This document shows, one piece after another, positions 13,742 to 31,107 of a stretch of DNA of 64,000 nucleotides (its first letter is position 1; every line of letters begins with the position of its first letter). The translations under genes and the position numbers were made by a program. The notes under the pieces were generated by a model. It saw nothing but the letters and a program-made list of their open reading frames with translations, did no database searches and was not told the origin of the DNA. This DNA is from Steroidobacteraceae bacterium (GTDB lineage Bacteria > Pseudomonadota > Gammaproteobacteria > Steroidobacterales > Steroidobacteraceae), in NCBI GenBank assembly GCA_036393055.1, contig DASVWT010000308.1, forward strand, positions 5,657-69,656. Direction: 5' to 3'.

Positions 13742-13743
13742 CT

Positions 13744-14043
13744 TCACGTCGATGTTTGCTCCGGCTGCAGGACCCGCAGCACACGCGCGACGTATTCCCG
13801 GTTCCACTGCCCGCGCTCCGCCGAATCCGCGGCATTGGGCTCGAAGGTCTCGAGCTCCGGACGCGCGAGCACGCCCTTGCGCTCGAGCAGTCGCTCCAGC
13901 GTATCGATGCGCACCCGCGCCACCGCGAGCTCCTGTGCGATCGCCATTGTGACGGCGAGCACGCGCTCGACCTCAGGCGCCAGAAACCAGGGCCGGTCGG
14001 AACCGGTGTGCGGTCCTCCCGCCGAAGATTGCGGTGTCGACAT
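13744..14043 (-). CDS. small helical protein, partner family copy A (99 aa)
   Basis: 99-aa ORF, GGAGG 8 nt upstream of the ATG. Core LAVTMAIAQELAVARVRIDTLERLLERKGVLARPELETFEP..REYVARVLRVL is paralogous to the small ORFs at 17724, 22554 and 44782. Confidence 0.65.
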   Translation of the reverse strand: MSTPQSSAGGPHTGSDRPWFLAPEVERVLAVTMAIAQELAVARVRIDTLERLLERKGVLARPELETFEPNAADSAERGQWNREYVARVLRVLQPEQTST

Positions 14044-14101: not shown

Positions 14102-14851
14102 TCAGTGCTGCAAGTCGAGCCGAAGCTGGTAACGGTCGGAGCGGTAATGGGCGACGGTGAGCAGCAGGGGATTGCCGCGCTGATCGAACACCGAGCGCGT
14201 GATGCGCAGGATGGCCGAGCGCGGCTCGACCGCGAGGTGGCGGCAGAGCACCGGATCGGCGAGCACGGCGGCCACCGTCTGCGAGGCCTTGCCGAGCCGA
14301 AAGCCGGCGTTCTTGATGAGTTTCAGGACAGGCTTGTGCGTGAGGCCCTCGCGGGTGATGTGCGGCGCCAGCGCGGCCGGTACGTAACTCAAGACGTAGC
14401 CCAGGGGCTCGCGATCGAGGTAACGCACCCGCACCGCTCGTATCACCGCATCACCCGCCTTCAGGCCCATCAGCTCGGCCACCCCCACGCTGGCCGCCTC
14501 CTGCTGCACCTCCAGGACGCGGACTTTGGTCAACCGGCCGAACTCCAGCAGCGAGTCCACAGCCTGATCCATGTTCGCCTCGATCGGCTTGGCCGGCGGG
14601 CGGTAGATCACGGTCGTGCCGACGCGGCGCTTGCGCGCCACGAAGTGATGTTGGGCAAGCTCCGCCAGCGCGCGGCGCGCCGTGATCCGCGAGACACCGC
14701 AGGTCAGCGAGACCTCTTTCTCGGTCCCGACGATCGAGCCGCAGGGGCGCTGTCCGGAGAGGATCTCGTCGCGCAACTGCAGGAAGATCTGATGATACAG
14801 GGGAATGGCTGCCGACCTGTCGATGGCGGCGCGCTTGTTGCTCGCTTGCAT
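14102..14851 (-). CDS. GntR-family transcriptional regulator (HutC/UTRA type)
   Basis: ORF track 14102..14995, start trimmed to ATG 14851 (MQASNKRAAIDRSAAIPLYHQIF), 249 aa. HTH GTEKEVSLTCGVSRITARRALAELAQHHFVARKRRVGT. Divergent from the hydantoinase operon. Confidence 0.85.
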   Translation of the reverse strand: MQASNKRAAIDRSAAIPLYHQIFLQLRDEILSGQRPCGSIVGTEKEVSLTCGVSRITARRALAELAQHHFVARKRRVGTTVIYRPPAKPIEANMDQAVDSLLEFGRLTKVRVLEVQQEAASVGVAELMGLKAGDAVIRAVRVRYLDREPLGYVLSYVPAALAPHITREGLTHKPVLKLIKNAGFRLGKASQTVAAVLADPVLCRHLAVEPRSAILRITRSVFDQRGNPLLLTVAHYRSDRYQLRLDLQH

Positions 14852-15008
14852 GATTCGCCTTTGCGGCGGCTCCCGTGGTGGACCCTGCGGATCGCGCCCG
14901 ACACCCCCGCGGGAGCGGTACCGATCCCGGCGCAATTGTAAGACAGCATCGGCTGCGCAGCGAGGCCGGCGTCGCCGACGGGCCCGCATGCGCACCCGCG
15001 ATCGGGCT

Positions 15009-15062: not shown

Positions 15063-16535
15063 ATGGCGGGCGAGAAGTACGATCTGCTGGTGCGCAACGT
15101 GCGCGTGGTGCGTCCAAACGCAGGCTCCGTGTCTGTGCAGGACATTGCGGTCAAGGACGGCAGATTCGCCGCCGTCGGAGGAGCGCTCGATCCGGCCGCG
15201 GCGGCGAACGTCGCCGATGCGCGCGGCATGCTCGGCTTCCCGGGCCTGGTCGATGCGCACATGCACACGGGCATCTACAGTCCGCTGGCCGAGGACGCCG
15301 TGACCGAGAGCCGGGCCGCCGCGCAGGGCGGTGTGACCTCGAGCCTCAACTACTTCCGCTCGGGCCAGTACTACCTCAACAAGGGCGGCCCCTACGCGGA
15401 ATTCTTCCCCGAGGTGCTCGATATCTCCAAGGGCCGCTTTCACGTCGACTACGCCTATCATCTGGCGCCGCTGGATACGCGCCAGATCGGCGAGATCGAC
15501 ATGCTGATCGAGAAGTACGGCGTCACGTCCTTCAAGATTTTCATGTTCTACGGCGGGTACGGCCTGCACGGCGCGTCCGGCCATCAGCACGAGTTCCTGA
15601 TGATCGGGCCCGAGGAGAAGTACGACCTCGCCCACTTCGAGTTCGTCATGCGGGGCGTGGAGCGCGCGCTCGCCAAATTTCCGGACCGCAGCCGCTACAT
15701 CAGCCTCAGCCTGCATTGCGAGACCGCCGAGATCATGGCCGCCTACACCAAGCTGGTGCAGCAGGAAGGCAAGCTCAGCGGTCTCAGGGCCTACAGCGCG
15801 GCGCGGCCCCCGCACTCCGAGGGACTCGCGGTCACGATCGCCTCGTACCTCGCGCACGAGACGCGGTGCCTCAACATCAATCTCCTGCACCTGTCCTCGC
15901 GCAAGGCGGTGGAAGCCGCGCTCACCATGGAGCGCGCCTTTCCGCACGTCAATTTCCGCCGGGAGGTGACGATCGCGCACCTCTGTATCGATTACGACGT
16001 CAAGACCGGCGTGCTCGCCAAGGTCAATCCGCCCATCCGCTCGCGCGAGGACGTCGAGTACCTCTGGCAGACCCTGCTCGACGGCAAGATCGACTGGGTG
16101 TGCAGCGATCACGCCTGCTGCCGGCACGAGATGAAGGTCGATGGCAGCAGGCCGGGCGACGTCTTCCTCGCCAAGTCCGGATTCGGTGGCACGGAGTACC
16201 TGCTCTCGGCCCTGCTCAGCGAGGGCCGCCGGCGCGGCCTGTCCTACAACCGCGTCGCCGAGCTGACCTCGTGGAATCCGGCGCAGCGCTTTGGCCTGCT
16301 GCGCAAGGGAGACATCGCTCCCGGATTCGACGCCGATCTGGTGCTGGTCGATCCCGACAAGTCGTTCGTCGTGCGCGCGGCGGAATCCGAATCCCGGCAG
16401 GGCTACACGCCATTCGAAGGCATGGAGCTGACGGGCAAGGTTGCCGCGACATATCTGCGCGGCAACTGCATCTACGAGAACGGCGCGGTAGTCGGACCGC
16501 CGCAGGGACGCTACCTCCACCGTCCTTACGCCTGA
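15063..16535 (+). CDS. hydantoinase/dihydropyrimidinase-type cyclic amidohydrolase
   Basis: 490 aa. Complete metal-site pattern: VDAHMH (HxH), SFKIFM (carbamylated Lys position), SLHCE, LLHLSS, CSDHAC. Confidence 0.9.
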   Translation: MAGEKYDLLVRNVRVVRPNAGSVSVQDIAVKDGRFAAVGGALDPAAAANVADARGMLGFPGLVDAHMHTGIYSPLAEDAVTESRAAAQGGVTSSLNYFRSGQYYLNKGGPYAEFFPEVLDISKGRFHVDYAYHLAPLDTRQIGEIDMLIEKYGVTSFKIFMFYGGYGLHGASGHQHEFLMIGPEEKYDLAHFEFVMRGVERALAKFPDRSRYISLSLHCETAEIMAAYTKLVQQEGKLSGLRAYSAARPPHSEGLAVTIASYLAHETRCLNINLLHLSSRKAVEAALTMERAFPHVNFRREVTIAHLCIDYDVKTGVLAKVNPPIRSREDVEYLWQTLLDGKIDWVCSDHACCRHEMKVDGSRPGDVFLAKSGFGGTEYLLSALLSEGRRRGLSYNRVAELTSWNPAQRFGLLRKGDIAPGFDADLVLVDPDKSFVVRAAESESRQGYTPFEGMELTGKVAATYLRGNCIYENGAVVGPPQGRYLHRPYA

Positions 16536-16545
16536 GGAGCCAACC

Positions 16546-17727
16546 ATGGCCGCGATGATCCAGCCCGACCGCACCACCCCGGACGCGGCCGCGCTGGCCT
16601 CCCGGCAGTCGTTCGTCGCGTCTCTGCGCGGTTATGTCCTCGACGATCTCGCTGCCGCGATGCGGCATACGTACGAGTCGGAAATCGAGCCCGCGTTCGA
16701 GCGAGCCCACGGCCGGCCGCCGCGCACGGAAGATGAAGTGCACGCGGCCATGCAGAACAACGCCGTCTTCAAGATCTACAGCTCGATCCGGGTCAACGCC
16801 CAGGAGATGGTCTGGCGCTCGGTGATTCCCGCCGCCGAGGCCGGTCTCGCCGACCTCGAGAAGGCGGTATCGGGCGCGCCCGGGCAGCGTGTGGGCTCCC
16901 TGACCCTCGATGAGTCGCTGACTCTTCCCGCGAACGTCGCAAGCCTCGAGGTTCACCTGATGCCTGGCGGCTATGCCCCCGACGCTTCGGCTCTGGCCGG
17001 AGCCGTCTATGACCGGGGCCTCGCCGTGTTCGCCGCCGGTATGATGGGCAGGAATCAGGACGACATCGGCCTCTCGATGGCGAATTACGTCAAGCATCGC
17101 TTCACGGAGTTTCATCCGCGGCGGATTCTCGATTGCGGCGCGACCGTTGGACACAACTCGGTGCCGTGGGGACTGACCTTTCCTGAAGCGGAAGTGCATG
17201 CGATCGATGTCTCCGCGGCGGTGCTCGCGTACGGCCACCGCAGGGCGCGGAGTCTGGGTGTACCCGTTCATTTTCGCCAGATGAACGCCACCCGGCTCGC
17301 CTATCCGGACGCGTCCTTCGATGTGGTCTTCAGCTCCATGTTCCTGCACGAGCTGCCGGTCGCCGATATCCACCGGTTCTTCGCCGAGGCGCGCCGCGTG
17401 CTGCGGCCGGGCGGCCTGCTGCTCAACATGGAGCTGCCGCCCAACCGGGAGCTGGCTCCGTACGATCAGTTCTATCTGGACTGGGACTGCTACTACAACG
17501 AAGAGCCCTACTATCGCGCCTTCCGCGATCAGGACCCGGAAGCTCTCGTGGCCGCGGGCGACTTCCGGCGGGACTGCTACTTCCAGTTCGTCGTGCCGCA
17601 ATACTCCTATATGACGGAGCCGGAGTTCATCGCCGCCGTCAGCGCACCGCCCGCCATCGGCCAGCAGACCGGGCGCCTGAGCTCGGGGGTTCAGTGGTTC
17701 GGCTTTGGCGCGTGGAATCGCCCGTGA
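16546..17727 (+). CDS. SAM-dependent methyltransferase-like protein with N-terminal extension (paralog 2 of 4)
   Basis: 393 aa, GAGGAG RBS. RILDCGATVGHNS, VHAIDVSA, FDVVFSSMFLHEL, LRPGG, YNEEPYY. N-terminal HGRPPRTEDEVHAAM, AQEMVW. Confidence 0.8.
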   Translation: MAAMIQPDRTTPDAAALASRQSFVASLRGYVLDDLAAAMRHTYESEIEPAFERAHGRPPRTEDEVHAAMQNNAVFKIYSSIRVNAQEMVWRSVIPAAEAGLADLEKAVSGAPGQRVGSLTLDESLTLPANVASLEVHLMPGGYAPDASALAGAVYDRGLAVFAAGMMGRNQDDIGLSMANYVKHRFTEFHPRRILDCGATVGHNSVPWGLTFPEAEVHAIDVSAAVLAYGHRRARSLGVPVHFRQMNATRLAYPDASFDVVFSSMFLHELPVADIHRFFAEARRVLRPGGLLLNMELPPNRELAPYDQFYLDWDCYYNEEPYYRAFRDQDPEALVAAGDFRRDCYFQFVVPQYSYMTEPEFIAAVSAPPAIGQQTGRLSSGVQWFGFGAWNRP

Positions 17728-18047
17728 CCGGCTCACCGCTCGACACGACCGGTCCGCGCCAGCGCTTCTTCGAGGCGGAACCAGTCGATCATCTCGTCAC
17801 CATGATGCTCGAGCTGGCCGCAGAGGTGTGGGCCGTCCGCGAGCGTCTCTACATCATCGAGAAGGAGTCCGCGCGTCTGGGGCTGCCCCTGGGCTCCGCC
17901 GTGGAGGGGCATGTCCTCTCGCCAGAAGAGCAGGCGGAGCTCGCCGAGATGCGCCGGCACATGCTGGCCAACATCCTGCGCACAGTGGGCCGGCCGCACC
18001 GCGATCCGCCTGAGATGCCCGGCACGACGGCGCCGCGCGCGGAATGA
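17724..18047 (+). CDS. small helical protein, partner family copy B (107 aa)
   Basis: ORF track 17694..18047, start set to GTG 17724, which overlaps the methyltransferase stop (GTGA). Core LVTMMLELAAEVWAVRERLYIIEKESARLGL..EMRRHMLANILRTV. Confidence 0.65.
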   Translation: MTGSPLDTTGPRQRFFEAEPVDHLVTMMLELAAEVWAVRERLYIIEKESARLGLPLGSAVEGHVLSPEEQAELAEMRRHMLANILRTVGRPHRDPPEMPGTTAPRAE

Positions 18048-18048
18048 C

Positions 18049-18852
18049 ATGGCCGGATCCGAGCCGATGCCGCAAGTCCCTGCGCGCAGCGATACGACGC
18101 CGCGCGAATACGGACGCCGGGGTGTTTTCGGCATATTGACACCTCAAAGCAACGCGATCGCAGAGCAGGAGCTGCGTATCCTGTTGCCGCCGGCCTGCTC
18201 CATGGTCAGCGCGCGGCTCACGAGCGCGGGCCGCACCCTCGAGCGGCGCCTGGCGGATTACGGCGAGCGGCTGGACCAGTTCCTCGATCAGTTCGGCAAT
18301 ATCGCCGCCGATGCCGTGGGCGTCGCTTGCACCGGGTCATTCTACGGCCTGGATCGGGGCGAAGAGCGCACCCGCAGGCAGGCCCGGCAGGCGCGCCGCG
18401 GATGTCCCGTCGTAACCTCCGTGGACGCGATCGATGCCGCTCTGCGCGCACTCGGCATCGGCTCCATCGCCATCGTGTCTCCTTACCCCGCCTGGCTCAC
18501 CGAAAGCTGCCGCTCGCATTGGGTAGGGCTGGGCACGCGTGTGACCGGCGTGCTGCAGCTCTCATCCGGAGCGACCGAGCCCCATCGGATCTACTCGCTC
18601 ACTTCCGCGTCAGTGCTCGAGGAAACTCTGCGATTCGACGTGCAGGGAGCCGAAGCTATCCTGCTGTCGGGAACGGGCATGCCGAGCCTGCGCGTCATCC
18701 AACAGCTCGAGCCCACGCGTGGCATCCCGGTGCTGTCATCGAGCCTCTGTCTGGCCTGGGCGCTAGCCCGGACCGTGGATCTCGGCGAGCGCGGTCCGGA
18801 GTCGCGGCTGTACGGCGGATGGGCCGGGCGCCTGGCGCTGGCACTGGCATGA
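18049..18852 (+). CDS. Asp/Glu/hydantoin-racemase superfamily protein (maleate isomerase / arylmalonate decarboxylase-like)
   Basis: ORF track 17911..18852, start trimmed to ATG 18049, 1 nt after the upstream stop. FGILTPQSN, AVGVACTGSFY, IAIVSPYP, AILLSGTGMPSLRVIQ, IPVLSS. Confidence 0.7.
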   Translation: MAGSEPMPQVPARSDTTPREYGRRGVFGILTPQSNAIAEQELRILLPPACSMVSARLTSAGRTLERRLADYGERLDQFLDQFGNIAADAVGVACTGSFYGLDRGEERTRRQARQARRGCPVVTSVDAIDAALRALGIGSIAIVSPYPAWLTESCRSHWVGLGTRVTGVLQLSSGATEPHRIYSLTSASVLEETLRFDVQGAEAILLSGTGMPSLRVIQQLEPTRGIPVLSSSLCLAWALARTVDLGERGPESRLYGGWAGRLALALA

Positions 18853-20051
18853 CGGCAGAGCTTCGCAAGCCCGTTCTCATCGTCGGCGCCGGTCCGGTTG
18901 GGCTGACTGCCGCATTGCGTCTGGCGCAGGCCGGAGTTGCGGTCGCGCTTTTCGAGGCCGAGCGTGCCGTCTCGACGGATCTGCGCGCCTCGACTTTTCA
19001 TCCGCCGACCCTCGACATGCTGGATACTCTCGGCGTGGCGGTGGAGCTCATCGCCCAGGGGCGGCTGACGCCCCGCTGGCAAGTCCGCCTGCACGAGACG
19101 GGCGAGCGCGCGGAGTTCGATCTCAGCATCCTGGCGGACGAGACACGCCACCCGTATCGCCTGCAGTGCGAGCAGCAGGTATTGCAGCGTCTGCTGCTCG
19201 ACCGGTTGGCTCAGTATCCCCATGCGCGCATCCGTTTCGACGCCGAAGTCGAGGCGGTGGGACAAGACGCCCGTGGAGTCTGGGTCGGCGTCAAAGGCGA
19301 GCGCACACAGGGCAGTTGGCTGATCGGCGCCGACGGCGCCCGCAGTATCGTACGCCGGACGTGCGGCATCGGTTTCGAGGGCGAGACCTATCCGGAGAGC
19401 ACGATCCTGGTCACCACGGATTTCGAGTTCGAGCGGTCGCTCCCGGGGCTCTCGCCCGTCAATTATATCTGGGCCGGCGCCGGAACCTTCAGCCTCCTGC
19501 GACTGCCCGATTTCTGGCGCTGCAGCCTCTACCCCCGCGAAGGGCAGACGCTCGAGAGCGCGATGGAGGATGATTCAATCGAGGCTCAACTCCAACATGT
19601 AGTCTCGCGTGCCGAGCGCTACAGGGTTCTGCACAAGAGGTGTTACCGCATCCACCGGCGTGTCGCCGACACGTATCGCCGGGGGCGCATGCTGTTGGCA
19701 GGCGATGCAGCGCATCTCAACAGCCCGAGCGGCGGCATGGGAATGAACGCCGGAATACATGACGCCTTCAGCCTCACGGACTGCCTCATTGGAGTCCTGG
19801 GAGATGCGGATGAACGGCTGCTCGACCGCTATGAGCGTCAGCGGCGCCCGATCGCCGTCGAGCACGTTCTGCAGCAATCCGACCGCAACCGGCGCCGCAT
19901 GCAGGAGACCGATCCGCAGCGCCGCCGCGAGCTGCTGCGCGACCTGCAACTCACGGCGGCGGATCCCGCACGGGCTCGCGAGTATCTGCTCGCGAGCTCC
20001 ATGATTGCCGGTCTGCGGCAGGCGGGCAGGATCGAGTCGGTGCAGACATGA
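18849..20051 (+). CDS. FAD-dependent aromatic-ring-type monooxygenase
   Basis: Within ORF 18327..20051; start ATG 18849 (ATGA overlap). VLIVGAGPVGLTAALRLAQAG, GADGARSIVRR, LAGDAAHLNSPSGGMGMN. Confidence 0.85.
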   Translation: MTAELRKPVLIVGAGPVGLTAALRLAQAGVAVALFEAERAVSTDLRASTFHPPTLDMLDTLGVAVELIAQGRLTPRWQVRLHETGERAEFDLSILADETRHPYRLQCEQQVLQRLLLDRLAQYPHARIRFDAEVEAVGQDARGVWVGVKGERTQGSWLIGADGARSIVRRTCGIGFEGETYPESTILVTTDFEFERSLPGLSPVNYIWAGAGTFSLLRLPDFWRCSLYPREGQTLESAMEDDSIEAQLQHVVSRAERYRVLHKRCYRIHRRVADTYRRGRMLLAGDAAHLNSPSGGMGMNAGIHDAFSLTDCLIGVLGDADERLLDRYERQRRPIAVEHVLQQSDRNRRRMQETDPQRRRELLRDLQLTAADPARAREYLLASSMIAGLRQAGRIESVQT

Positions 20052-21448
20052 GGAGTTCCACTGCACGCGCATTCTCCAATCGCTACGCGTGGTACGTCGC
20101 GGGACTGCTGACGCTCACGCAGATCGTTTCCTATCTGGATCGTTTCCTGCCGAGCCTGCTGGTACGGCCCATCAAGCAGGACCTGCACTTGAGCGATTTC
20201 CAGATCGGGCTGCTGCTCGGGCCGGCATTCGTCGTGTTCTATGTCCTGCTCGCCGTCCCGCTGGGCTGGTTGGCAGATCGAGTCAACCGGCGCGCCATTC
20301 TGGCCGTGGGCGTGGCGATCTGGTGCTCCATGACCGCCGCGGCAGCGGCGGTGAGCGGCTTCCTGCCGCTGTTCGCGACCCGCCTCGGGGTGGGATTCGG
20401 CGAGGCGGCCGTCGCACCGACGTCGATCTCGCTGATCGGCGATTACTTCGGGCGCGAGCGGCAGGCGCGCGCCGTCAGCCTCTTCATGTCCGGTGCGTTC
20501 CTCGGCGCCGGCGCGTCGTTTCTCTTCTTCGGGCCGCTGGTCCATTACATCGAGTCGCTGCCCACGGTCGCGTTGCCGCTGCTCGGCCGGATCTCATCGT
20601 GGCGGTTGTGCTTCCTCCTGGTCGGGGCCCCCGGCCTGTTGCTGACACTCCTCATGCTGACGGTGCGCGAGCCGGCGCGACGGGATCGTGTTGCAATACG
20701 CTCACGGGATGGCCGGACGACTTCGAGCGCAGAGGCGAATCCGACGTTCTCCGAAGGCATCGCCTACATCGTACGGCGGTGGCGCGCCTTCGGAACGCTG
20801 TTTGTCGCGTCCTCCTGCAATGTCATGATGGGTGCCCTCGCGTTCTGGAACGTCGCACTCTTCGGCCGCACGTGGCACTGGAATGTCGCCCAGGTGGGCA
20901 TCGCGGTCGGGGTGATCCTCTTTACCGCTGGGCCCCTGGGGACGCTGCTCGGTGTCTATCTGACCAACCGCGACCTGGCCGCGGGCCGAAGGGATGCGAC
21001 CCTGCGGGCGCTTTTCGTCGGTCTGCTCATCGGAGTGCCCACGTACTGCGCCTTTCCGCTGATGCCGAGCGTCCAGTTGGGGCTGGCGGTTTTGTTCGTC
21101 GCGCTGCTCGGTCAGGCCATGGCCACCGCAGCGGGGCCAGCCACCCTGGTGATGCTGGCGCCCGGCCAGATCCGCGCCCAGTCGACCGCCATTTACTATC
21201 TGGTGATCAGCATCGTCGCGCAGCTCATCGGACCGCCGCTGGTGGGTCTCATCACCGACCTGCTCGGCAGCCCGGACGCGCTGCGCTACGCCGTTGCCAT
21301 CGAGGCGGCCCTGATCGGGATTCCGTCGATCGTGCTCGTCTGGCTCGGCTTTGGGGCCTACCGCCGTTCCGTGGCGGAGCTCGAGGGCCAGTTCGATGTC
21401 GAGTCGTGGCCCGCCGGTACGCCCGCCATAGAAGGAGCGCCAAGATGA
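20048..21448 (+). CDS. MFS transporter
   Basis: 466 aa, multi-TM hydrophobic profile. MFS loop motif GWLADRVNRRAIL. ATGA overlaps at both ends. Confidence 0.85.
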   Translation: MRSSTARAFSNRYAWYVAGLLTLTQIVSYLDRFLPSLLVRPIKQDLHLSDFQIGLLLGPAFVVFYVLLAVPLGWLADRVNRRAILAVGVAIWCSMTAAAAAVSGFLPLFATRLGVGFGEAAVAPTSISLIGDYFGRERQARAVSLFMSGAFLGAGASFLFFGPLVHYIESLPTVALPLLGRISSWRLCFLLVGAPGLLLTLLMLTVREPARRDRVAIRSRDGRTTSSAEANPTFSEGIAYIVRRWRAFGTLFVASSCNVMMGALAFWNVALFGRTWHWNVAQVGIAVGVILFTAGPLGTLLGVYLTNRDLAAGRRDATLRALFVGLLIGVPTYCAFPLMPSVQLGLAVLFVALLGQAMATAAGPATLVMLAPGQIRAQSTAIYYLVISIVAQLIGPPLVGLITDLLGSPDALRYAVAIEAALIGIPSIVLVWLGFGAYRRSVAELEGQFDVESWPAGTPAIEGAPR

Positions 21449-22557
21449 CATTCTCGCTCGAGAGCCGGGCCACGCTGCAATTCGTGTTGACTCTGCGCCG
21501 CCGATGGGCGGATACGCTCTATCCGCGCTTGCGCGCGGAATGTGATGCCCTGGGCGGCCCGGAATCGCTCGCGCCCGATGGTTTCGCGGATCGCGTCCAC
21601 GGGCTGAGGAGCTATCCGGGCTTTGCGTGGCTGGAGCGCGGGTCGCAGAAGATGTTGTGGCGCGCGGCGATCGATGCGATCACGGGGGATGATGCCGGGG
21701 AAGCTCGTGCGGCGGAAAGTGGCACCGCGAAACGCGACGCGGCGGATCGAGCGGCAGGACGAAGATATCCGACAGGGCCCGCGTCGGGCTCGACGCTGGA
21801 GCTCGACCCGCAATTGCCGCTGCCGGATTGGTATACCGGCTGGGACATTCACTTGCAGCCGGGCGGTGTTTGGTCCGATGCAACCTCGGCCCGGGTATAC
21901 GAGCTCGGCGCGCGGCTGGTGATGCTGGGCGACAACGACGATTACAAGTTTCATCGCCTGTTCGTGGAGACCGCCGTTCCGCGACGCGATTACCGCCGGA
22001 TCGTCGATCTCGGCTGCGGCTTCGGCAAATCCACGTGGCCGCTGAAGAAAGCCTTCCCCGTTGCGGAAGTGATCGGCATCGATCTCTCCGCGCCATGCCT
22101 GGAGCTTGCGGTGCGGCGGACTGCGGCAAAAGGACTCGGCATTCGCTTCCGGCAAGCGAATGCAGCCGGAACCGGACTCGAGGCGGCGCGCGCCGATCTG
22201 GTCACCGCCACCATGCTCGCCCACGAATTGCCGCTCGATGCTCTGGCGGCGGTTCTCGCGGAGGCAGCGCGCCTTCTGGCGCCGGGCGGCCTGCTGCGGA
22301 TTCTGGATTTTCAGTACACCGGCGACCCCTTGCGCGATCTCGCGATGACCGAGCATGGCGCACGCAACAACGAGCCCTTCATGCCGCCGATGATGTCGGC
22401 CGATACGGTCGGTATGGCTGAGGCCGCGGGCCTGCGGGAGGTGCGCTGGACGGCCTTCGACGAGCGCGATGCGGGCAGACTGGAGCAGCTTGCGTGGCCG
22501 CAGCGCGCGGAATGGCACTTTCCGTGGGCGGTCCTCGAAGCGGAGAAGCCGGCGTGA
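21445..22557 (+). CDS. SAM-dependent methyltransferase-like protein with N-terminal extension (paralog 3 of 4)
   Basis: C-terminal part of ORF 20005..22557; start ATG 21445 (GGAG RBS, ATGA overlap with the MFS stop). RIVDLGCGFGKST, VIGIDLSA, ADLVTATMLAHEL, LAPGG, RNNEPFM. Confidence 0.8.
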   Translation: MTFSLESRATLQFVLTLRRRWADTLYPRLRAECDALGGPESLAPDGFADRVHGLRSYPGFAWLERGSQKMLWRAAIDAITGDDAGEARAAESGTAKRDAADRAAGRRYPTGPASGSTLELDPQLPLPDWYTGWDIHLQPGGVWSDATSARVYELGARLVMLGDNDDYKFHRLFVETAVPRRDYRRIVDLGCGFGKSTWPLKKAFPVAEVIGIDLSAPCLELAVRRTAAKGLGIRFRQANAAGTGLEAARADLVTATMLAHELPLDALAAVLAEAARLLAPGGLLRILDFQYTGDPLRDLAMTEHGARNNEPFMPPMMSADTVGMAEAAGLREVRWTAFDERDAGRLEQLAWPQRAEWHFPWAVLEAEKPA

Positions 22558-22883
22558 GCGCGCCCGCTGAATTCGGCGGCATCGACAACTCACATCTCGC
22601 GGCCCTCGTCTTCGAGCTGGCCTCACAATTGCACGTGGAGCGCGCGCGACGCCTCGCGCTCGAGGCAACGCTGACGCGTCTCGGCATTCTCGATGCCTCG
22701 CAGATCGAGGCTGCCGCTGACGGTCCCTCTTACCGGCAACAGACGGCCCTTCTGGCGGATGAGGCGATCCGCAGGCTCCTGGAAGTACTGTCCGAGTCGA
22801 GCGACGAGCGCAAGCCCCTGCGCGCCGAGGCGCCCGCAAGCGCCGCGCCGCCGGCCGCAGACGCCGAAAGCAAACATCCCTGA
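22554..22883 (+). CDS. small helical protein, partner family copy C (109 aa)
   Basis: ORF track 22494..22883, start set to GTG 22554 (GTGA overlap). Core LAALVFELASQLHVERARRLALEATLTRLGILDASQIE..ADEAIRRLLEVL. Confidence 0.65.
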   Translation: MSAPAEFGGIDNSHLAALVFELASQLHVERARRLALEATLTRLGILDASQIEAAADGPSYRQQTALLADEAIRRLLEVLSESSDERKPLRAEAPASAAPPAADAESKHP

Positions 22884-22895
22884 AGGAGAATCCCG

Positions 22896-23720
22896 ATGGC
22901 CAGGCCGTGGATCGAATTCGTGCAGTCGCAGAACCTGCCTTGGGCGGCCGGTGATCTCTGGGGCTGCCGCCCCGGTGTCGACCTCAAGGTCCTCAGTCTG
23001 GACCCCGATCAGGGCGCCGCCAGCCTGCTGGTGCGTTACCCTCCCGGGTGGCGGCTCGAGCGCGAAGGCACGCTCTCGGCCGACGAGGAATTCCTGGTGT
23101 TGGACGGCGCTCTCTCGCTGGGGCGGCAGCGCCACGGCGAGAAGGCATACGCACACCTGCCGGCGGGCTACGCGCGCGGTCCGATGGCATCCGAGAGAGG
23201 CGCTGTCGCTCTGACTTTCTTCTCGCAACGGCCGTTCTGGGACACGGCGAGGCCGTTCGATCCGGCGCGGCTGGTCGAGAACCTGGATGCGTTCTCCGTT
23301 CCCTACACCGGGCGCTTCCATCCGGAGTTCCCGCCCGGAGCCGGCCGCAAGACGCTGTATGAGGATCCCGTCACCCACGATCAGAGCTGGATTCTCGGCA
23401 CCCTGCCGATGCGCTGGGCGGAGCGCGCGGAGGTTCATCCCGTCGTGGAGGAAATGTATCTGTTGAGCGGCGAGTCGCACGGCAACCGCGGAGTGATGCG
23501 CCCCGGCGCCTACTTCTGGCGGCCGCCCGAGATCGCGCACGGGCCGTACGGAACGCTGACGGGAAACCTCTACTTCTTCCGCACTCACGGCGGACCGCTG
23601 GTCACCCGATATGTCGATTCCGGCCAGCCGTTCCGCTGGTGGCCCGCGTACGATCCCGTGTTGCCGGAGGAGCTCGCCGGTGCGCGCGGCGAAGCCGCGC
23701 CCGCCCCGCGGTGCTGGTGA
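22896..23720 (+). CDS. cupin-fold (apparent bicupin) protein of unknown function
   Basis: 274 aa, AAGGAG RBS. Two cupin-like halves (..ADEEFLVLDGALSL.. and ..HPVVEEMYLLSGESHG..PPEIAHGP..). Confidence 0.6.
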   Translation: MARPWIEFVQSQNLPWAAGDLWGCRPGVDLKVLSLDPDQGAASLLVRYPPGWRLEREGTLSADEEFLVLDGALSLGRQRHGEKAYAHLPAGYARGPMASERGAVALTFFSQRPFWDTARPFDPARLVENLDAFSVPYTGRFHPEFPPGAGRKTLYEDPVTHDQSWILGTLPMRWAERAEVHPVVEEMYLLSGESHGNRGVMRPGAYFWRPPEIAHGPYGTLTGNLYFFRTHGGPLVTRYVDSGQPFRWWPAYDPVLPEELAGARGEAAPAPRCW

Positions 23721-23723
23721 GCA

Positions 23724-24398
23724 ATGACCCGACTCCCTTACTCTTGCCTCGTCTTCGCCCACCTGCTCCTCTTCGTCCTGTGGCTCGGGGGTGACGTCGG
23801 CGTCTACACACTCGGCCGCCACTTCCGTATGCGCGCCCGCTACAGCATCGAGCAGCGGCTCGCGCTGCTGAAGCTCCTCGTGGCAATCGACATGGTGCCG
23901 CGAACCGCCTGGGCCCTGATGGTTCCGGTGTCCCTCTCCGTCGTCGCGGCGGGCGGTTACTGGGCGGTACCGCGCTGGCTGCTGGCGCTGGCGTGGATCG
24001 CGGGGCTTCTCTGGACCTGGCTCGTCTGGGATGCGCACGCGCACGAGCGGACGCCACGGGCGGCACGCGAGCGGCGCGTCGAATTCTGGCTGAAGATCGT
24101 GCTGGCGCTCTTCTACCTCTGGCTGGGAAGCGCTTCGCTCGCAACCGGAGCGCCGCTGACAGCCGCGTGGCTGGCCGTGAAGGCGCTGGCGTTCGGCCTG
24201 ATCTTCGGTGCCGCCACGATGATCGATGTCGCCTACCGGCCGGTCGGCGCACAGCTCGGCCGTCTCCTGCGCGAGGGCTCGAGCGATGCCACCGAGCTGC
24301 CGCTGCTCGTGACCATGAACCGCACGCGCGCGTGGGTCTGGACGGTGTATCTGCTGCTGTTGGTGACCGCATTTCTCGGTGTCGCAAAACCCTTCTGA
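23724..24398 (+). CDS. integral membrane protein, unknown function (paralog A)
   Basis: 224 aa, about 5-6 hydrophobic helices. N-terminal LVFAHLLLFVLWLGGDVG; C-terminal LLVTAFLGVAKPF. Paralogous to the next gene. Confidence 0.7.
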   Translation: MTRLPYSCLVFAHLLLFVLWLGGDVGVYTLGRHFRMRARYSIEQRLALLKLLVAIDMVPRTAWALMVPVSLSVVAAGGYWAVPRWLLALAWIAGLLWTWLVWDAHAHERTPRAARERRVEFWLKIVLALFYLWLGSASLATGAPLTAAWLAVKALAFGLIFGAATMIDVAYRPVGAQLGRLLREGSSDATELPLLVTMNRTRAWVWTVYLLLLVTAFLGVAKPF

Positions 24399-24451
24399 TC
24401 CGCGGGCGCCATCCAACCGACCCACTCCTCCGCAGCACCCAAAGGTGAGCC

Positions 24452-25114
24452 ATGCTCCCGCAGGCACTGCTCGTCGCCCATATCGCCATCGTCGGCTACT
24501 GGCTCGGCTCGGAGCTGGTGATCAACAGCACCTATCGCCAGGTGTGCTTCGGCGCCCGGCTACCGTTCCCGGAGCGCAATCGGATGATGGAGCACGTCAT
24601 GGAGGCCGACCAGCACGTGCGTTATGCGCTGGCCCTGCAGGTCGCGACGGGTTTCGCTCTCGCGGCGCTGTACGGCTTCATTCCGGGCGGCGGTACCGCC
24701 GCCTGGATGGCCGCCCTATTCGGGGCACTCTGGCTCACGTTCATCGAGACCGTGCATCGCCTGCGCCACGCCCCCACGGGCCGCCGCCTCGGCGCGATCG
24801 ACCGCGGCTCCCGCTACCTGTTGATGGCCGTGCTGTTGTGCATCGGCGCCGGCCTGATCGGCCGCGGATGGGGCACCCCCGGCTGGCTGCGCCTGAAGCT
24901 GGCGCTCTTTGCCGGCGTAATGGCATGCGGCGTCGGCATCCGGATCGTGCTGCTGGCGCACTTCCGCGTTTGGAAGGCGATGGCGCAAGATGGTCCGACC
25001 GACCACGGCAACGCGCTCATCCGAAGCATCTACATCAAAGCGACGTCGATTCTGGGATTCCTCTGGGCGCTGATCGCCTGTATCGTCATCATCAGCGTCT
25101 CGAAGCCCATGTGA
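24452..25114 (+). CDS. integral membrane protein, unknown function (paralog B)
   Basis: 220 aa, AAAGGTGAG RBS. LLVAHIAIVGYWLGSELV, WLRLKLALFAGVMACG; C-terminal IVIISVSKPM. Confidence 0.7.
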   Translation: MLPQALLVAHIAIVGYWLGSELVINSTYRQVCFGARLPFPERNRMMEHVMEADQHVRYALALQVATGFALAALYGFIPGGGTAAWMAALFGALWLTFIETVHRLRHAPTGRRLGAIDRGSRYLLMAVLLCIGAGLIGRGWGTPGWLRLKLALFAGVMACGVGIRIVLLAHFRVWKAMAQDGPTDHGNALIRSIYIKATSILGFLWALIACIVIISVSKPM

Positions 25115-25682: not shown

Positions 25683-25711
25683 GGACCGCAGGACAAACCC
25701 GAATGCGGCGG

Positions 25712-28073
25712 TCAAAACTGGTAATTCGCCCGCAGGTCCCACATGCCCGGCGTGTTGAAGTAATCGAAGCCCAGCAGGTCGGCCGTTCCGTAGTCGACCA
25801 TCGTGCAGTTCCGACACTCCAGCGTCACCGTCAACGGAGTCCTCGCCATCGCCCAGGTGACGCTGGCATCGAGGAGCGTTCGCGCCTTCGTCTCACCCCC
25901 GACGTCGGGGTAGGAGGCCGAGAAGCCGGCGGTGTTCGCGGTATCGAACCATTCCTTCGCCACGTAGTGGACGCCCAGATACGGCGTGATCGAGAAGCTT
26001 TCGAATCCGAGGGTGTACCGCGCGCCCAGCGTGAGATCGATGGGCGGCGTGTAGACGGGCGTCGCGAGACTCCCATCCGCCTTCACGATACCCGAGTCGC
26101 AGGATGCCGGATCGCCGGCGCGACAGGCTGCCTGCTGCGCCAGGATGAGCTGGCTCTGAGCGTAATAGCCGGCTTTCATCGAGCTCAGGTTGCCGCTGAT
26201 GGTCAGCGGATCGATCGGCCGCCATTCGAGGTCGGCCTCGAGACCATAGGCGTAGAGGCTCGCCGCATTGCTGGTATCGAACGAGCGGGTGTGCGGATTA
26301 TCCGAGAGTAACTGATAGTCCTTGACGTCCTCGTAGAAGACGGTTGCGTTGAGGCGCAGTCGCGGCGTCGGCGTGGAGCGCAAGCCGGCTTCATAGGACC
26401 ACATCGTCTCCGGGCCGAAATTGTTGAAGTCGACCGGATTGGTGCCGGTGAGTCCGTTCCAGCCGCCGCCCTGGAATCCCCTCGTTGCGGAAACATAGGC
26501 CATGAGCTGCGGATCGAACTGGTACTGCAGCGATACGTGCGGCGTGAACTGGTTGGTCTTCAGGTGCGTCGGGTAACCCGCCGCCTGGATCTGCGCTGTG
26601 TCATAGCCGAGACCCGGCGCGTTGGGGTTCGCCACCACATTCTTCGTCTCGTCCGTGAATCGTGCCCCGACGGTCGCCGTGAAAGCCGAGGTGACCTTGT
26701 AGTCGCCCTGCGCATAGAGCGCGGCCGAGGTCGTGTCGTTGGTGAAGAACTGGTCGTTGAGCGTCAATGCAAAAGTGGGCGCGAGGCCCAGCACCTGGCC
26801 GTAATCGTTGTTGTTCGTCTCGTATAGATAGAACGCGCCGGCCGTGTAGTTGAAGCGATCGCCCACCTTCTCGGTCCACTTCACCTCCTGCGAGACCTGG
26901 TGATTGGCCAGATCCTGGGCGAGCGTGATCTCTCCGGTCGGCACCGCATCCGCCGTGGGCAGAGGACCCAGCACCGCGGCGGGGAAATCCGCCCCCAGGT
27001 CCTGATGCAGCCGCCGGTATCCGGTGATGAGGTTCAACGTGCCGCCGCCGAGATCCAGGGCGATGTTCGAGGAGACGCCGTAGCTCGTGACGATCGCCCC
27101 CTGGCCGAACCCCGACTTGAAGCCGGTCAGGTAGGGCCGGAGCGCGCCGCCTATCTTGTCGAGGCCGCTGTAGGAGATGCGCTCGCCATTGGGACCCGGC
27201 TGATTGAGTATGTTCGCGTTGTTGTTGCGCTCATAGTCGAAGGCCAGGTCCCAGCGCAGGTTGGACATCGCGCTCGGAAGCAGCGCAAGGGCCTCGGCGG
27301 ATGCCGAAGTTGTTGGTTCCGTTGAGCCGCTGGCCCGTGGTGACGTCGTGCACGTAGCCGTTGCCGGTGATCCCGTAGACGGACGTGCGGGTGAGGATCT
27401 GGTCGCTGATGGGCAGATCCACGGCTGCGCGCGCCAGATACTGGTAGCCGCCGGACTCGCCGTACTGGCCATAGCTCACCTCGGCATCGCCGCCGAACTT
27501 CGTGCCCGCCTTCTTGAGGGTCACCAGGATCGCGCCGCCGGTGGAGTTGCGGCCGAAGAGCGTGCCCTGCGGCCCGTTGAGCACCTGCAACTGCTGCACG
27601 CCGAACAGCGCAAAGTTGTTGGCGTTCTGGCGCGCGATGTAGATGTCGTCGATGTAGGTGCTGACCTGGGGCTCGAAGGTCGGGAAGGACTGTGTCTGGC
27701 CGAGGCCGCGGATGTAGTACACGTTGGCCGAACCCTGGCCGACGTTGTTCGCGGCGAACATGTTTGGCACGTACCGCTCGAGGTCCTGCGTGGAGGTGAT
27801 CTGCCGCGTGGCGAGCTGATCAGAGGTGAAAGCGGTGACCGCGACGGGCACGTTCTGCAGGTTCTGCTCGCGCCGCTGGGCCGTGACCGTAATGGTCTCC
27901 AGCGTGCCGGCCGTCTGCACCGGCTGCGACGCGTTGCCCTGATCACCGGTGCCCGTGCTCTGATCGGCGGCGGCTGCGCCGGACGGCGCCGCGGCCACCG
28001 CTGCCGCCGGCAAGGCCAGTGCGCCCGCAACGGCCGCGATTGCCGCGAGGATCGGATTCGTGTGGATGCTCAT
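25712..28073 (-). pseudogene. TonB-dependent receptor interrupted by a 1-nt frameshift
   Basis: Two overlapping minus-strand ORFs: 27231..28073 (signal peptide plus plug) and 25712..27472 (barrel). Together they align end to end with the intact paralog at 32393-34717. The frames join at ..NNFGIR/EALALLP.., where the sequence reads TTCGGCATCCGC-C-GAGGCC (extra base within 27296-27300). Confidence 0.8.
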
Positions 28074-28186
28074 GCGGAATGTCCCCCGACGATCGCTTGA
28101 TATGTATTTAGTCTATAGCAAATAGATGCTGCGTGGAAACCCCGCCCCGACCGAAGCCCGCCCCCTGCCCTGCCGGGTCGGTGCGA

Positions 28187-28198
28187 ATGTCCGGACAA
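28187..28198. promoter_or_regulatory. palindromic operator copy ATGTCCGGACAA
   Basis: Match to the recurring 12-bp palindrome, 115 nt upstream of the receptor start (28073). A TG-extended TATAGA (minus strand, about 28113-28118) lies between it and the gene. Confidence 0.45.
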
Positions 28199-28236
28199 TT
28201 TGTATCCGCCGGGCCACAGGGGAGCGCTCGGACCGC

Positions 28237-28350
28237 TGCAAAGATGCCGGTGCGGATCAGCTCGTCGGTCTCGGCTGCGCCGAGATTCAGTCCATCGGGG
28301 ATCGCGCGGTATTCGCCCGACCGCCGCGGGACTCGCGATCGTCGAGGGGA
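28237..28350 (-). pseudogene. 3'-terminal remnant of a family-III CoA-transferase gene
   Basis: The minus strand reads ..VPRRSGEYRAIPDGLNLGAAETDELIRTGIFA, preceded by an in-frame TAG (28351-28353). The DNA at 28249-28330 is visibly similar to the 3' end of the CoA-transferase gene at 38311-38390. Confidence 0.6.
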
Positions 28351-28383
28351 CTAGCAGGCTTGGGGCCTCGAAATCCAGTCCGG

Positions 28384-28419
28384 CTCACCTCGCCCTCTCA
28401 GGGGGCGTGAGGCGGTGAG
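28384..28419 (-). terminator. imperfect GC-rich hairpin downstream of MFS gene
   Basis: CTCACCtCGCCC-tctca-GGGgGCGtgaggcGGTGAG, about 95 nt after the stop at 28512. No T-tract. Confidence 0.25.
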
Positions 28420-28511
28420 AGAACCAGCGGGCGGCGTTCCGCTGCGTCCAGGATGTCCTACGCTGTCTAAGGCGGCGAACTGCGGGCCACCGGCTGGTTT
28501 GCGTCCCGGCC

Positions 28512-29795
28512 TTAGTGCGCTTCCGCAGCCGTAAGACCTGCTCCGGCCGAGTCTCCCCCAGCCGCGGGATAGCGTCCGAGCAGCAGCAGCACTGCGCCCG
28601 TGGCGGCGAACATGAATATATCGGCTATGAGAATCGAGTCGTAGCTTCCCGTGCGGTCGCGCACCATTCCGTAGAGAATCGGCGAAATCGATGCTCCGAT
28701 GACGAAGGCCAGATAAAGGGTGCCGTAGATACGCCCGTAATGCGCCATCCCGAAATACTTGGCCGCGAGATACGCGATGATGTCGGACTCCGCTCCCACG
28801 GCGAACCCGAGCAGGAAGCCGGCGATCATGATCGAAGGTGCGTTGCCCGCCGTGCCGAGCAGCATCCAGCACGCAAGCGCCGTCACCAGCATTGCCGGAC
28901 ACGCTATCGCCGGCGCCCAGAGGTGGTCCATGAGAATTCCGGTCAGCAGCCGGGAAAAGAGAATGCCAAAGGCCGTCAGCGTGATCACGCTGGCGGACGC
29001 GCGGGCCGACAGCCCGTGCAGCTCGGCAATCTGCACGACGTTGATCTGCGCGCCAATATCGGCCAGAGAGATGGCCAGCACCGCAAACACCAGCACCCAG
29101 AACCGATAACCGCGGAGAGCCTGTACGAGAGTGATGCCGATCAGACGGCCGCGCGTATCGGCGACGCCCGCCGGATACTCTTCGGGCCGCGGGTCACGCA
29201 GCCAGAGCAGACCGACCGGTACCGCGATCAGCAGCGGAAGCAGCGCCGCCGCGGGAAATACCGCCTGCCACCGGGAGGTGGCGGACAACACGGTCTGAGC
29301 GACTTGCGGTACCGCCAGAGCGGCCGCACTGCTCCCCAGAAGCATGACGGCAAGCGCCAGACCGCGATTGCGCACGAACCACATGTTCACGGCGCGGCTG
29401 AAAATGAGGGGCGTCGAGCCGATGCTGACCACACCGAGAAGTGCCCACAAGGCGCAATACCCGCTCACGGAATTCGACAGGAAGTAGAACGACCCGAACG
29501 TGAGTCCGAAGGCCGTCATCGACCACAGCGCCACCGGCCGCACGCCGATTCGATCGCAGAGAGCGCCGAATACCGGCGCGAGCAACGCGGCGACTATCCC
29601 GAAGATGGAATATCCCATGCTGATGAGGGTGAAGTCCCACCCGGACTGGACGTGGATGGGCCCCATCACGATCGGCAGTACGTAGAAGGGGACCGGATAG
29701 GCGCCGCAGGCCACGCCGACGAAGCAGGCCGTGAGCGGCTTCCACCCTGCCCCGAACTCCAGGTAACCGCCGCCTTCGAGTCCAAACCTGCTCAC
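28512..29795 (-). CDS. MFS transporter (paralog of 47552-48829)
   Basis: ORF track 28512..29882 begins at a TTG inside the operator palindrome. The start is reassigned to GTG 29795, which overlaps the stop of a leader uORF (GTGA). Begins ..GWKPLTACFVGVACGAYPVPFYVLPIVMGP; multi-TM. Confidence 0.8.
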   Translation of the reverse strand: MSRFGLEGGGYLEFGAGWKPLTACFVGVACGAYPVPFYVLPIVMGPIHVQSGWDFTLISMGYSIFGIVAALLAPVFGALCDRIGVRPVALWSMTAFGLTFGSFYFLSNSVSGYCALWALLGVVSIGSTPLIFSRAVNMWFVRNRGLALAVMLLGSSAAALAVPQVAQTVLSATSRWQAVFPAAALLPLLIAVPVGLLWLRDPRPEEYPAGVADTRGRLIGITLVQALRGYRFWVLVFAVLAISLADIGAQINVVQIAELHGLSARASASVITLTAFGILFSRLLTGILMDHLWAPAIACPAMLVTALACWMLLGTAGNAPSIMIAGFLLGFAVGAESDIIAYLAAKYFGMAHYGRIYGTLYLAFVIGASISPILYGMVRDRTGSYDSILIADIFMFAATGAVLLLLGRYPAAGGDSAGAGLTAAEAH

Positions 29796-29821
29796 CAGCG
29801 CACCGCCGAGAGATTCACCAT
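29792..29821 (-). CDS. leader uORF (MVNLSAVRW, 9 codons)
   Basis: AGGAG (29830-29826), 4 nt, then ATG 29821. Reads ATGGTGAATCTCTCGGCGGTGCGCTGGTGA. Its TGA overlaps the GTG of the MFS gene by 4 nt. The same architecture occurs upstream of the paralogous MFS gene. Confidence 0.45.
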   Translation of the reverse strand: MVNLSAVRW

Positions 29822-29870
29822 TGGTCTCCTGCTTTCGCCGCCCGCAGTATCGAGCCGCGCCCCGGACAGC

Positions 29871-29910
29871 TTGTCCGGACAACTATTGGGGAGAATCGCA
29901 AGGCTGTCAA
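29871..29910 (-). promoter_or_regulatory. sigma70-like promoter with perfect palindromic operator TTGTCCGGACAA at the start site
   Basis: Minus strand: TTGACA (29910-29905), 17 nt, AATAGT (29887-29882), immediately followed by TTGTCCGGACAA (29882-29871). A half-site TGTCCGG repeats 3 nt further downstream. Confidence 0.55.
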
Positions 29911-29979
29911 GCGCATCCCCCGCGTCCGCCGATCCCCGGCGTGCGTTTGCCCGATTCTCCATCTTCGCCCATGCGAACG

Positions 29980-29999
29980 ATTCCAACTCCGGCGGGAAT
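29980..29999. promoter_or_regulatory. inverted repeat ATTCC-N10-GGAAT (candidate LysR-type binding site)
   Basis: ATTCCAACTCCGGCGGGAAT in the MFS/LysR divergent intergenic region. This is the dyad type expected for LTTR autoregulatory sites. Confidence 0.3.
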
Positions 30000-30115: not shown

Positions 30116-30121
30116 TACGTC

Positions 30122-31072: not shown

Positions 31073-31107
31073 ACCGGGGGCTCGGCCCTTCGTGCGGCAG
31101 TCCGGCA

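Follow-up and report, generated by a model that had tools for sequence, protein, structure and literature searches.

A class I methyltransferase and a small partner protein encoded as a conserved pair in a putative catabolic island of Steroidobacteraceae

Trm112 is a beta-rich, zinc-knuckle protein that activates the class I methyltransferases Trm9, Trm11, Mtq2, and Bud23, and the systems built around it modify tRNA, rRNA, and release factors in eukaryotes and archaea. Small obligate partners are also known for enzymes of other classes: AtzG accompanies AtzE, GatC accompanies GatA, and MbtH-like proteins accompany adenylation domains. Here, we describe a bacterial gene pair that invites comparison with these systems. 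It lies in a 64,000-nucleotide (nt) stretch of DNA from a Steroidobacteraceae bacterium (contig DASVWT010000308.1, positions 5,657 to 69,656; GC content ~67%), referred to below as the window, and consists of a gene for a methyltransferase dependent on S-adenosylmethionine (SAM), MT-C, and an overlapping small gene for a protein that we call partner C. A further pair of this kind, MT-B and partner B, is encoded upstream on the same strand. The evidence leads us to favor, by a modest measure, the view that MT-C and partner C together form a two-subunit small-molecule methyltransferase that catalyzes a step distinct from that of MT-B.

Conservation of the MT-C/partner C pair and its paralogs

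The pair and the transporter gene that precedes it are arranged as follows:

21445-22557 (+): MT-C, a class I SAM-dependent methyltransferase of 370 amino acids (aa)
22554-22883 (+): partner C, 109 aa, a predicted helical hairpin
20048-21448 (+): MFS transporter, Pfam MFS_1 match at 7.6e-38

Both gene junctions named in the original prediction can be read in the sequence. The start codon of MT-C, ATG 21445, lies within ccaagATGAcat, has GAAGGAG upstream, and forms an ATGA overlap with the stop codon of the MFS gene (TGA 21446-21448). The start codon of partner C, GTG 22554, lies within ccggcGTGAgcg, has GGAG 8 nt upstream, and forms a GTGA overlap with the stop codon of MT-C (22555-22557). Position 21445 is supported as the start of MT-C because its orthologs align from residue 1, and 22554 is preferred over an upstream GTG at 22494 because a 4-nt overlap of the form ATGA or GTGA (NTGA) is found in 76 of 80 pairs, namely those of the window and of 79 loci from other genomes described below. 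Programmed frameshifting across the GTGA junction was considered and set aside, as a slippery heptamer is not present before it.

Long spurious open reading frames (ORFs) are common in this DNA: within 12.5 kb of the window, 72 ORFs reach 60 aa or more, and on the antisense strand of the region one of them extends to 493 codons. At a GC content of 67%, the 109-codon length of partner C is therefore no evidence for a gene by itself, and what speaks to the matter is conservation. MT-C has hundreds of orthologs at 55-85% identity, and the two-gene unit recurs in hundreds of proteobacterial genomes. A scan for its relatives in one genome per species gave 80 loci at 55-79% identity that span Alpha-, Beta-, and Gammaproteobacteria, with carriers that include Nitrospirillum, Niveispirillum, Sphingopyxis, Sphingomonas, Novosphingobium, Caulobacter, Devosia, Hydrogenophaga, and many Steroidobacteraceae. 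The 80th locus ends 157 nt past the methyltransferase; in all 79 loci with enough sequence, the partner ORF is intact and directly downstream of the MT-C ortholog. This conservation of ORF, frame, and motifs across orthologous loci identifies partner C as a real gene and, with more than 1,600 clusters in its family, effectively refutes the idea that 22554-22883 is a chance ORF in GC-rich DNA. To that idea, and to its companion that the two pairs are mere redundant duplicates, we give next to no credence. As far as sequence can show, the earlier claim of a second coupled methyltransferase/partner pair holds.

The association also holds when it is approached from the side of the partner. Among metagenome contigs picked by the partner alone (type D, the commonest type), 74 of the 77 loci with enough sequence have a methyltransferase of the family directly upstream, with an NTGA overlap in 50 of the 74, and in one further locus the methyltransferase lies 360 nt away. 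The pair is present as well in annotated contigs from a Betaproteobacterium (L004), Sphingomonas (L006), and others (L008). A partner profile searched against 1.84 billion representative sequences retrieved 1,626 clusters at 50% identity with E ≤0.001, 772 of them with E ≤1e-10, nearly all of which are stand-alone proteins of 90-160 aa; the long matches in this search are variants with Lys/Ala/Pro tails and not methyltransferase fusions.

The paralogs of the pair in the window were located by tblastn, which gave four methyltransferases in total, with partners after B, C, and D. Besides the pair under study, the relevant features are:

16546-17727 (+): MT-B, 393 aa, motif I GATVG; first paralog in the gene row 15063-25114
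17724-18047 (+): partner B, 107 aa; start codon and MT-B stop codon share a GTGA
10754-11971 (-): MT-A, 405 aa; third paralog, with no adjoining partner
13744-14043 (-): partner paralog, cognate of MT-A, 99 aa; a GTGA joins its stop codon to the GTG with which the following VOC-like gene starts
12866-13747 (-): VOC/glyoxalase-like two-domain protein, 293 aa; weak Pfam Glyoxalase match
12009-12854 (+): VOC-like paralog, ortholog of the VOC gene found ahead of MT-C in most other genomes
44779-45993 (-): MT-D; fourth paralog, start uncertain (45993 or 45960)
44420-44782 (-): partner D, 120 aa, the type most widespread among partners; start codon and MT-D stop codon share an ATGA

Four pairs had been predicted. 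Three of them (B, C, and D) do adjoin, while the fourth is split, with the cognate partner lying 1.8 kb from MT-A. A contiguous order of methyltransferase (405 aa), partner (126 aa), and VOC gene (294 aa) in another locus (L090, 3787-6284) indicates that the MT-A pair was separated by a rearrangement in the window.

Methyltransferases A, B, and D share 34-37% identity with one another and ~30% with MT-C. Among the partners, A and D share 45% identity and the other pairs ~27-33% (B and C ~29% over 52 residues), so that similarity ranks alike for both proteins, with A and D closest and C most distant. Across all fetched loci, the clusters of methyltransferases correspond to the clusters of partners about one to one, with an adjusted Rand index (ARI) of 0.96-0.995 and a Mantel r of 0.90 for 101 adjoining pairs, 83 of which are type C, leaving the statistic to rest on few pairs of the other types. 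For type C taken separately, the Mantel r is 0.71, a value reached by 0 of 2000 permutations. The check for co-divergence proposed in the original prediction is thus positive, and we read it as common descent of the two genes as a unit and not as proof of binding.

MT-B and MT-C each have their own orthologs at 60-90% identity in other genomes and, at only ~30% identity to each other, are old paralogs. The two modules are also found apart, as in a Nitrospirillum locus that carries the MT-C module only, within ~8 kb. An identity of ~30%, separate orthologous groups and neighbors, and modules that occur independently all argue that the MT-B and MT-C steps differ, and they are hard to reconcile with redundancy. 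As far as sequence can tell, then, the two copies serve different steps or substrates, as originally suggested.

The MT-C enzyme and the partner C protein

MT-C scores above the Pfam gathering thresholds of Methyltransf_25, _11, _12, _31, and _23 (71.0 bits against a cutoff of 27 for Methyltransf_25 and 59.6 against 21.2 for Methyltransf_11). Its motif I, VDLGCGFG at residues 187-194, matches the glycine-rich loop hh(D/E)hGxGxG and is, as had been noted, the most canonical of the four: MT-C has GCGFG, whereas in MT-A (GCSAG), MT-B, and MT-D (GCTIG) the middle Gly is replaced by Ser or Thr. In the AlphaFold2 (AF2) model of MT-C, which has a predicted local distance difference test score (pLDDT) of 88.6 and a predicted template modeling score (pTM) of 0.89, an N-terminal helical domain of ~175 aa with long helices at residues 5-35 and 57-92 is followed by a Rossmann core in which strands and helices alternate from residue 185. 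A Foldseek search of the PDB returned class I methyltransferases only, many at probability 1.00, with the core alone aligned (TM-score normalized by the query, TMq, ≤0.48); the matches include CouO/NovO, Rv2258c, DsyB, Coq5, RebM/AtmM, RdmB, and CmoA. Searched on its own, the N-terminal domain retrieves this methyltransferase family only. The divergence of the N-terminal extension of MT-C, a feature of the original prediction, is only in part a matter of the domain itself: some of it comes from a loop insertion of ~20 aa, within about residues 80-115 (pLDDT ~45), which is lineage-specific low complexity. By motif, profile, and fold, MT-C is a bona fide class I methyltransferase that falls outside every named subfamily.

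Several named identities were tried and rejected. UbiE/COQ5, the JGI label of many MT-C orthologs, fails on TIGR01934 MenG/UbiE (41.4 bits against a cutoff of 158) and on PRK00216.1-5 (scores of 41 against 216). The best NCBIfam match, CpaM, reaches 60.8 bits against 180, and the neighborhood genes include no corrinoid protein; BioC (36.5 bits against 185) and Tam (33.3 against 297) are both far under their NCBIfam cutoffs. The neighborhood of MT-C in the window holds no pointer to quinone, biotin, or corrinoid metabolism.

Residues that are invariant across all four methyltransferase types fall in both halves of the protein. In the N-terminal half, they are H136, P139, G140, Y152, and D166; further on, they are D188, G190, and G194 of motif I, H260 and E261, and N308, E310, and P311 of an 'NNEPF' motif, with D213 nearly so. 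The H260-E261 pair sits at the end of strand 4, and a further acidic residue lies at the end of strand 2. In HMMER alignments, H260 coincides with the conserved His of NovO/CouO ('FHRL') and of RebM/AtmM ('LHHMP'), the residue that we take to be the general base in NovO, CouO, and RebM. The SAM motifs and this aligned His make MT-C probably an active small-molecule O- or C-methyltransferase. The fold matches also include RdmB and CmoA, and these raise the question of whether MT-C might instead be non-methylating, with SAM serving as the cofactor of another reaction (as in RdmB, LepI, SpnF, or CmoA) or with the protein acting as a binding protein. The oddity of stoichiometric SAM use in catabolism and the Ser or Thr that MT-A, MT-B, and MT-D have in motif I could be cited in the same sense. 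MT-C itself, however, has the canonical GxGxG together with the acidic residue that closes strand 2 and the His that serves true O- and C-methyltransferases as general base, and no feature specific to non-methylating enzymes was found in it; we consider a non-methylating MT-C quite improbable.

Partner C is matched by no Pfam or NCBIfam model, and 29 members of its family compared with Pfam (to E 5) and NCBIfam (to E 1) gave nothing significant; nor did searches of the PDB with partner C, by sequence and by fold. AF2 predicts a helical hairpin, formed by helices at residues 12-42 and 58-85, that has a short strand at its N terminus and is disordered at both ends. Two motifs, ELASQLHxER and ExxDxRxPLR, are conserved among type C partners. 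The Ala/Pro/Glu tail pointed out in the original prediction is present at residues 96-109; it is not a conserved feature of the family, being gapped in most orthologs, and is lineage-specific low complexity. Two candidate relationships were rejected. Phasin, the JGI name of one partner homolog (P0232), is not supported, as phasin families are not among the Pfam matches even at E ≤5. An element of nitrile hydratase alpha gave a Foldseek E of 5.6 over 36 residues and a HMMER E of 0.76, neither of which is significant, and the NCBIfam model nitrile_alph was matched by one of the 29 partner sequences at E 0.13. As a side observation, partner residues 28-55 (RxRLxxxExxLxxxGxLxxxxIE) resemble the N-terminal helix-turn of cobalt nitrile hydratase alpha at a non-significant 36% identity over 36 residues.

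The partner changes at about double the rate of the methyltransferase; its ratio of nonsynonymous to synonymous substitution rates (dN/dS) is ~0.3-0.5, against 0.15-0.3 in the methyltransferase, values that are only indicative with dS near saturation. Such rapid change in a simple helical hairpin with disordered ends would suit a protein that is tied to MT-C without being a stable subunit of it, i.e., a chaperone for folding or solubility, or a regulator or inhibitor that, for example, spares SAM until the substrate arrives. Tight linkage and translational coupling would be expected equally of such a protein. The strict one-to-one matching of types over deep divergence and the conserved polar motifs nevertheless point to a specific, lasting interface, and we regard a chaperone or inhibitor as possible, though the less probable account of the partner.

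Module context and the weight of the evidence

To place the pair in its context, the neighboring genes were clustered across the 80 MT-C loci, and gene order was read where possible. MT-C belongs to a portable module that starts with a regulator (LysR or GntR) and a transporter (MFS or ABC), continues with a VOC-like gene, MT-C, the partner, and a bicupin, and is often followed by a TonB-dependent receptor. Homologs of the bicupin were found in 59 of the 80 loci, of the VOC-like gene (12009-12854) in 49 at a median identity of 58%, and of the MFS gene in 44; in every locus where gene order could be read, the bicupin comes directly after the partner. In a subset of Alphaproteobacteria, a flavoenzyme of the Old Yellow Enzyme (OYE) type (~660 aa) replaces the VOC and cupin genes, and the methyltransferase/partner pair persists. 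The other paralogs keep different company: MT-B travels with a cyclic amidohydrolase (L002, L003, L091) and MT-D with an FAD_binding_4 oxidase, as well as with a CN-hydrolase in the Sphingomonas locus L006 and in L008.

From these observations, we have assembled a working model of the MT-C/partner C enzyme:

(i) The GTGA overlap of 4 nt would couple translation of the partner to termination on MT-C, which would yield the two proteins in roughly equal amounts.

(ii) The partner would bind MT-C, probably at the N-terminal helical domain or at the edge of the sheet.

(iii) Once bound, the partner would act as a stabilizing or activating subunit of MT-C.

(iv) MT-C would methylate a hydroxyl, enol, or activated-carbon nucleophile of a small molecule, as its alignment with known enzymes suggests.

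(v) The substrate may be an imported compound, possibly nitrogen-rich, or one of its intermediates, since the module includes a transporter and lies inside what appears to be a large catabolic island.

Several points weigh against a dedicated two-subunit methyltransferase. A methylation that consumes SAM is an unusual and costly step in a catabolic pathway. The partner-family copy at 13744-14043 is coupled to a VOC-like gene and not to a methyltransferase, and the partner-side sample contains two loci whose upstream 3 kb hold no methyltransferase. A few loci have a partner-family ORF before the methyltransferase (L022, L048, L067) or on the opposite strand right after it (L015, L021); the association of the two genes survives such changes of gene order. 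Distant partner homologs (P0287, P0289, P0258, P0368, P0369) carry long Lys/Ala/Pro-rich tails, resembling histone H1 or HC2, at either end, and in the context of a tailed homolog (L093, 4248-4970) the neighboring genes have no Pfam match, so that a methyltransferase domain is not annotated there. Methyltransferase-partner fusions are absent from the best 150 of the 1,626 partner relatives, and full-text literature searches found no paper on the MT-C/partner module. Finally, a Mantel-type correlation does not prove contact, since adjacent genes share their history anyway.

Some of these points would fit a partner that is a general adaptor or scaffold for several enzymes of the island, or an anchor to another structure. 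The VOC-coupled copy, the partner placed between methyltransferase and VOC gene in L090, the VOC and cupin genes that flank the pair in most loci, and the tailed homologs in a locus without an annotated methyltransferase domain can all be read in this way. The counts tell against it: the methyltransferase is a near-invariant neighbor (79 of 79 loci on the one side and 74 of 77 on the other), compared with ~49 of 80 for VOC and ~59 of 80 for cupin, and the methyltransferase/partner pair outlasts the exchange of VOC and cupin for the OYE-type flavoenzyme. We therefore judge an adaptor role to be unlikely and retain the two-subunit methyltransferase as the reading that we modestly prefer.

The remaining genes of the row to which the pair belongs, and the divergent regulator beside it, are:

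14102-14935 (-): GntR/UTRA (HutC-type) regulator, by Pfam; divergent from the row
15063-16535 (+): cyclic amidohydrolase (allantoinase/hydantoinase-like), Pfam Amidohydro_1; first gene of the row
18049-18852 (+): gene resembling arylmalonate decarboxylase (AMDase), maleate isomerase, or Asp/Glu racemase, 267 aa, Pfam Amdase 1.3e-13
18837-20051 (+): PHBH-type FAD-dependent monooxygenase, Pfam FAD_binding_3 6.9e-64; start uncertain (18819 or 18837)
22896-23720 (+): bicupin (Cupin_7/DUF4437), 274 aa, by Pfam; 12 nt past partner C
23724-25114 (+): two integral membrane proteins of 224 aa and 220 aa, paralogous-looking, from their translations; end of the row

All genes between 15063 and 25114 lie on one strand, and they overlap or are separated by gaps of at most 53 nt. 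Terminator-like sites are no more numerous than shuffled sequence would give, a promoter scan was likewise not above chance, and an Rfam search found no regulatory RNA. A single transcript across 15063-25114 is plausible on this layout. The AMDase-like gene lies between partner B and the FAD monooxygenase, its start 2 nt beyond the stop of partner B; it had been overlooked in the earlier list of genes and has homologs in 11 loci. The NCBIfam allantoinase and hydantoinase matches of the 15063-16535 product are all under cutoff. The PDB relatives of the bicupin are distant ChrR-type cupins only, and PDB searches with the bicupin and the VOC-like protein gave distant relatives or none.

The closest relative of the window is a metagenome-assembled Steroidobacteraceae contig (L002), with 85-88% nucleotide identity over shared blocks. 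The genes for the 224-aa and 220-aa membrane proteins are present in it as well and are rare among the other loci. The AMDase-like and FAD monooxygenase genes form a 1.9-kb block that is missing from this contig and that, in several other genomes, adjoins MFS and MT-C. The TonB-dependent receptor gene at 25711-28121 (-) is split over two frames in comparison with its intact 785-aa ortholog in L002: residues 37-259 of the latter align in frame -3 and residues 235-785 in frame -1, with a break near 27294-27376 that reflects a frameshift or an assembly error. Between this receptor gene and a CoA-transferase gene, ~10 kb (28121-38287) are missing from the syntenic L002 contig; in the window, they hold an MFS transporter, a LysR regulator, an MFS_4 transporter, another TonB receptor, an aldehyde dehydrogenase, and a DUF1838-like gene.

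Beyond the four pairs, the window encodes three TonB-dependent receptors and four MFS transporters, along with three GntR/UTRA regulators. It also holds genes for CN-hydrolases and an amidase, for aldehyde dehydrogenases, and for three family III CoA-transferases, an HMG-CoA-lyase-like enzyme, an HpcH-type lyase, LeuCD-like aconitase subunits, two PrpD-like proteins, an acyl-CoA dehydrogenase, and hydratases. Judged by this gene content, we take the window to be a catabolic island, whose lower part looks like a citramalyl-CoA-type route and whose upper part looks like amide or ureide hydrolysis. With almost every gene of the window annotated, the gene set was compared with known pathways, none of which fits. 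At 54651-59969 (+), two PrpD/MmgE-like genes, a PaaK-like ligase, and an amidase lie beside a GntR/UTRA regulator; in the betaproteobacterial locus L004, the methyltransferase/partner pair is flanked by two PrpD-like genes, a PaaK-like ligase, and a GntR/UTRA regulator, and the amidase was not seen. This shared gene set hints at a wider common pathway. The 'tRNA-???' that ARAGORN places at 49033-49123 (+), where the HpcH/HpaI lyase gene begins, has a four-base anticodon and is probably spurious.

Significance and comparison with known systems

Annotation in thousands of genomes goes no further than 'class I SAM-dependent methyltransferase' or 'UbiE' for the methyltransferases of this family and 'hypothetical protein' for the partner. 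Should the partner prove necessary, efforts to express or assay the methyltransferases without it would be bound to fail, and annotation and study would have to treat the two as one unit; a separate family model for the partner would be warranted as well. Methylation that recurs in four pairs within an island fed by TonB-dependent receptors and MFS transporters is unusual and may point to an unrecognized degradation route for an environmental compound in soil and freshwater Proteobacteria (Steroidobacteraceae, Sphingomonadales, Caulobacterales, Nitrospirillum). The question can be approached by experiment in cultured carriers, among them Nitrospirillum amazonense, Niveispirillum irakense, and Sphingopyxis sp. 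KK2. Tentatively, and with less assurance than for the MT-C pair itself, we suggest a more general picture in which the partner family (~100-125 residues, ~1,600 clusters) is the obligate second subunit of a clade of N-terminally extended methyltransferases, with a Trm112-like activation carried out on an unrelated fold, and in which repeated SAM-dependent methylations are integral to the breakdown of an imported compound, for example by activating intermediates or locking their tautomers.

Set beside described enzymes and their partners, of which those under (iii) and (iv) come closest in function, the pair shows the following likenesses and differences:

(i) UbiE/COQ5, CpaM, BioC, and Tam share with MT-C the generic Methyltransf_11/25 fold.

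(ii) The C-methyltransferases NovO and CouO and the O-methyltransferases RebM and AtmM (PDB 5mgz, 5m58, 3bus, 6uv6) are the best matches to the Rossmann core, at E 1e-8 to 1e-11. MT-C differs from them in sequence (~20% identity) and in overall structure (TMq ≤0.48); they have neither the N-terminal helical domain of 175 residues nor the NNEPF motif, act alone, and belong to antibiotic biosynthesis and not to a catabolic island.

(iii) AtzG, GatC, and MbtH-like proteins resemble the partner in having 60-120 residues, in being encoded beside their enzyme, and in being easily overlooked in annotation; in those systems, the small protein is needed for solubility or activity. Their folds and enzyme classes are unrelated to those of the pair, and no similarity of sequence or fold to the partner was found.

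(iv) Trm112 systems are alike in joining a class I SAM methyltransferase to a small dedicated protein and in having one partner family serve several methyltransferase paralogs. Membership of the partner among Trm112-type activators was rejected, as none of the 29 partner sequences matches the relevant Pfam or NCBIfam model. Unlike Trm112, the partner is predicted to be an all-helical hairpin, each methyltransferase has its own co-diverged partner, and the context is bacterial and appears to involve small molecules. By analogy, activation by Trm112 might serve as a model for how the MT-C/partner C pair works, with the partner as a stabilizing or activating subunit.

The partner family and the N-terminal domain, found here in what appears to be a catabolic setting, are probably both undescribed, while the arrangement, a class I methyltransferase with a dedicated accessory protein, is probably of a known kind.

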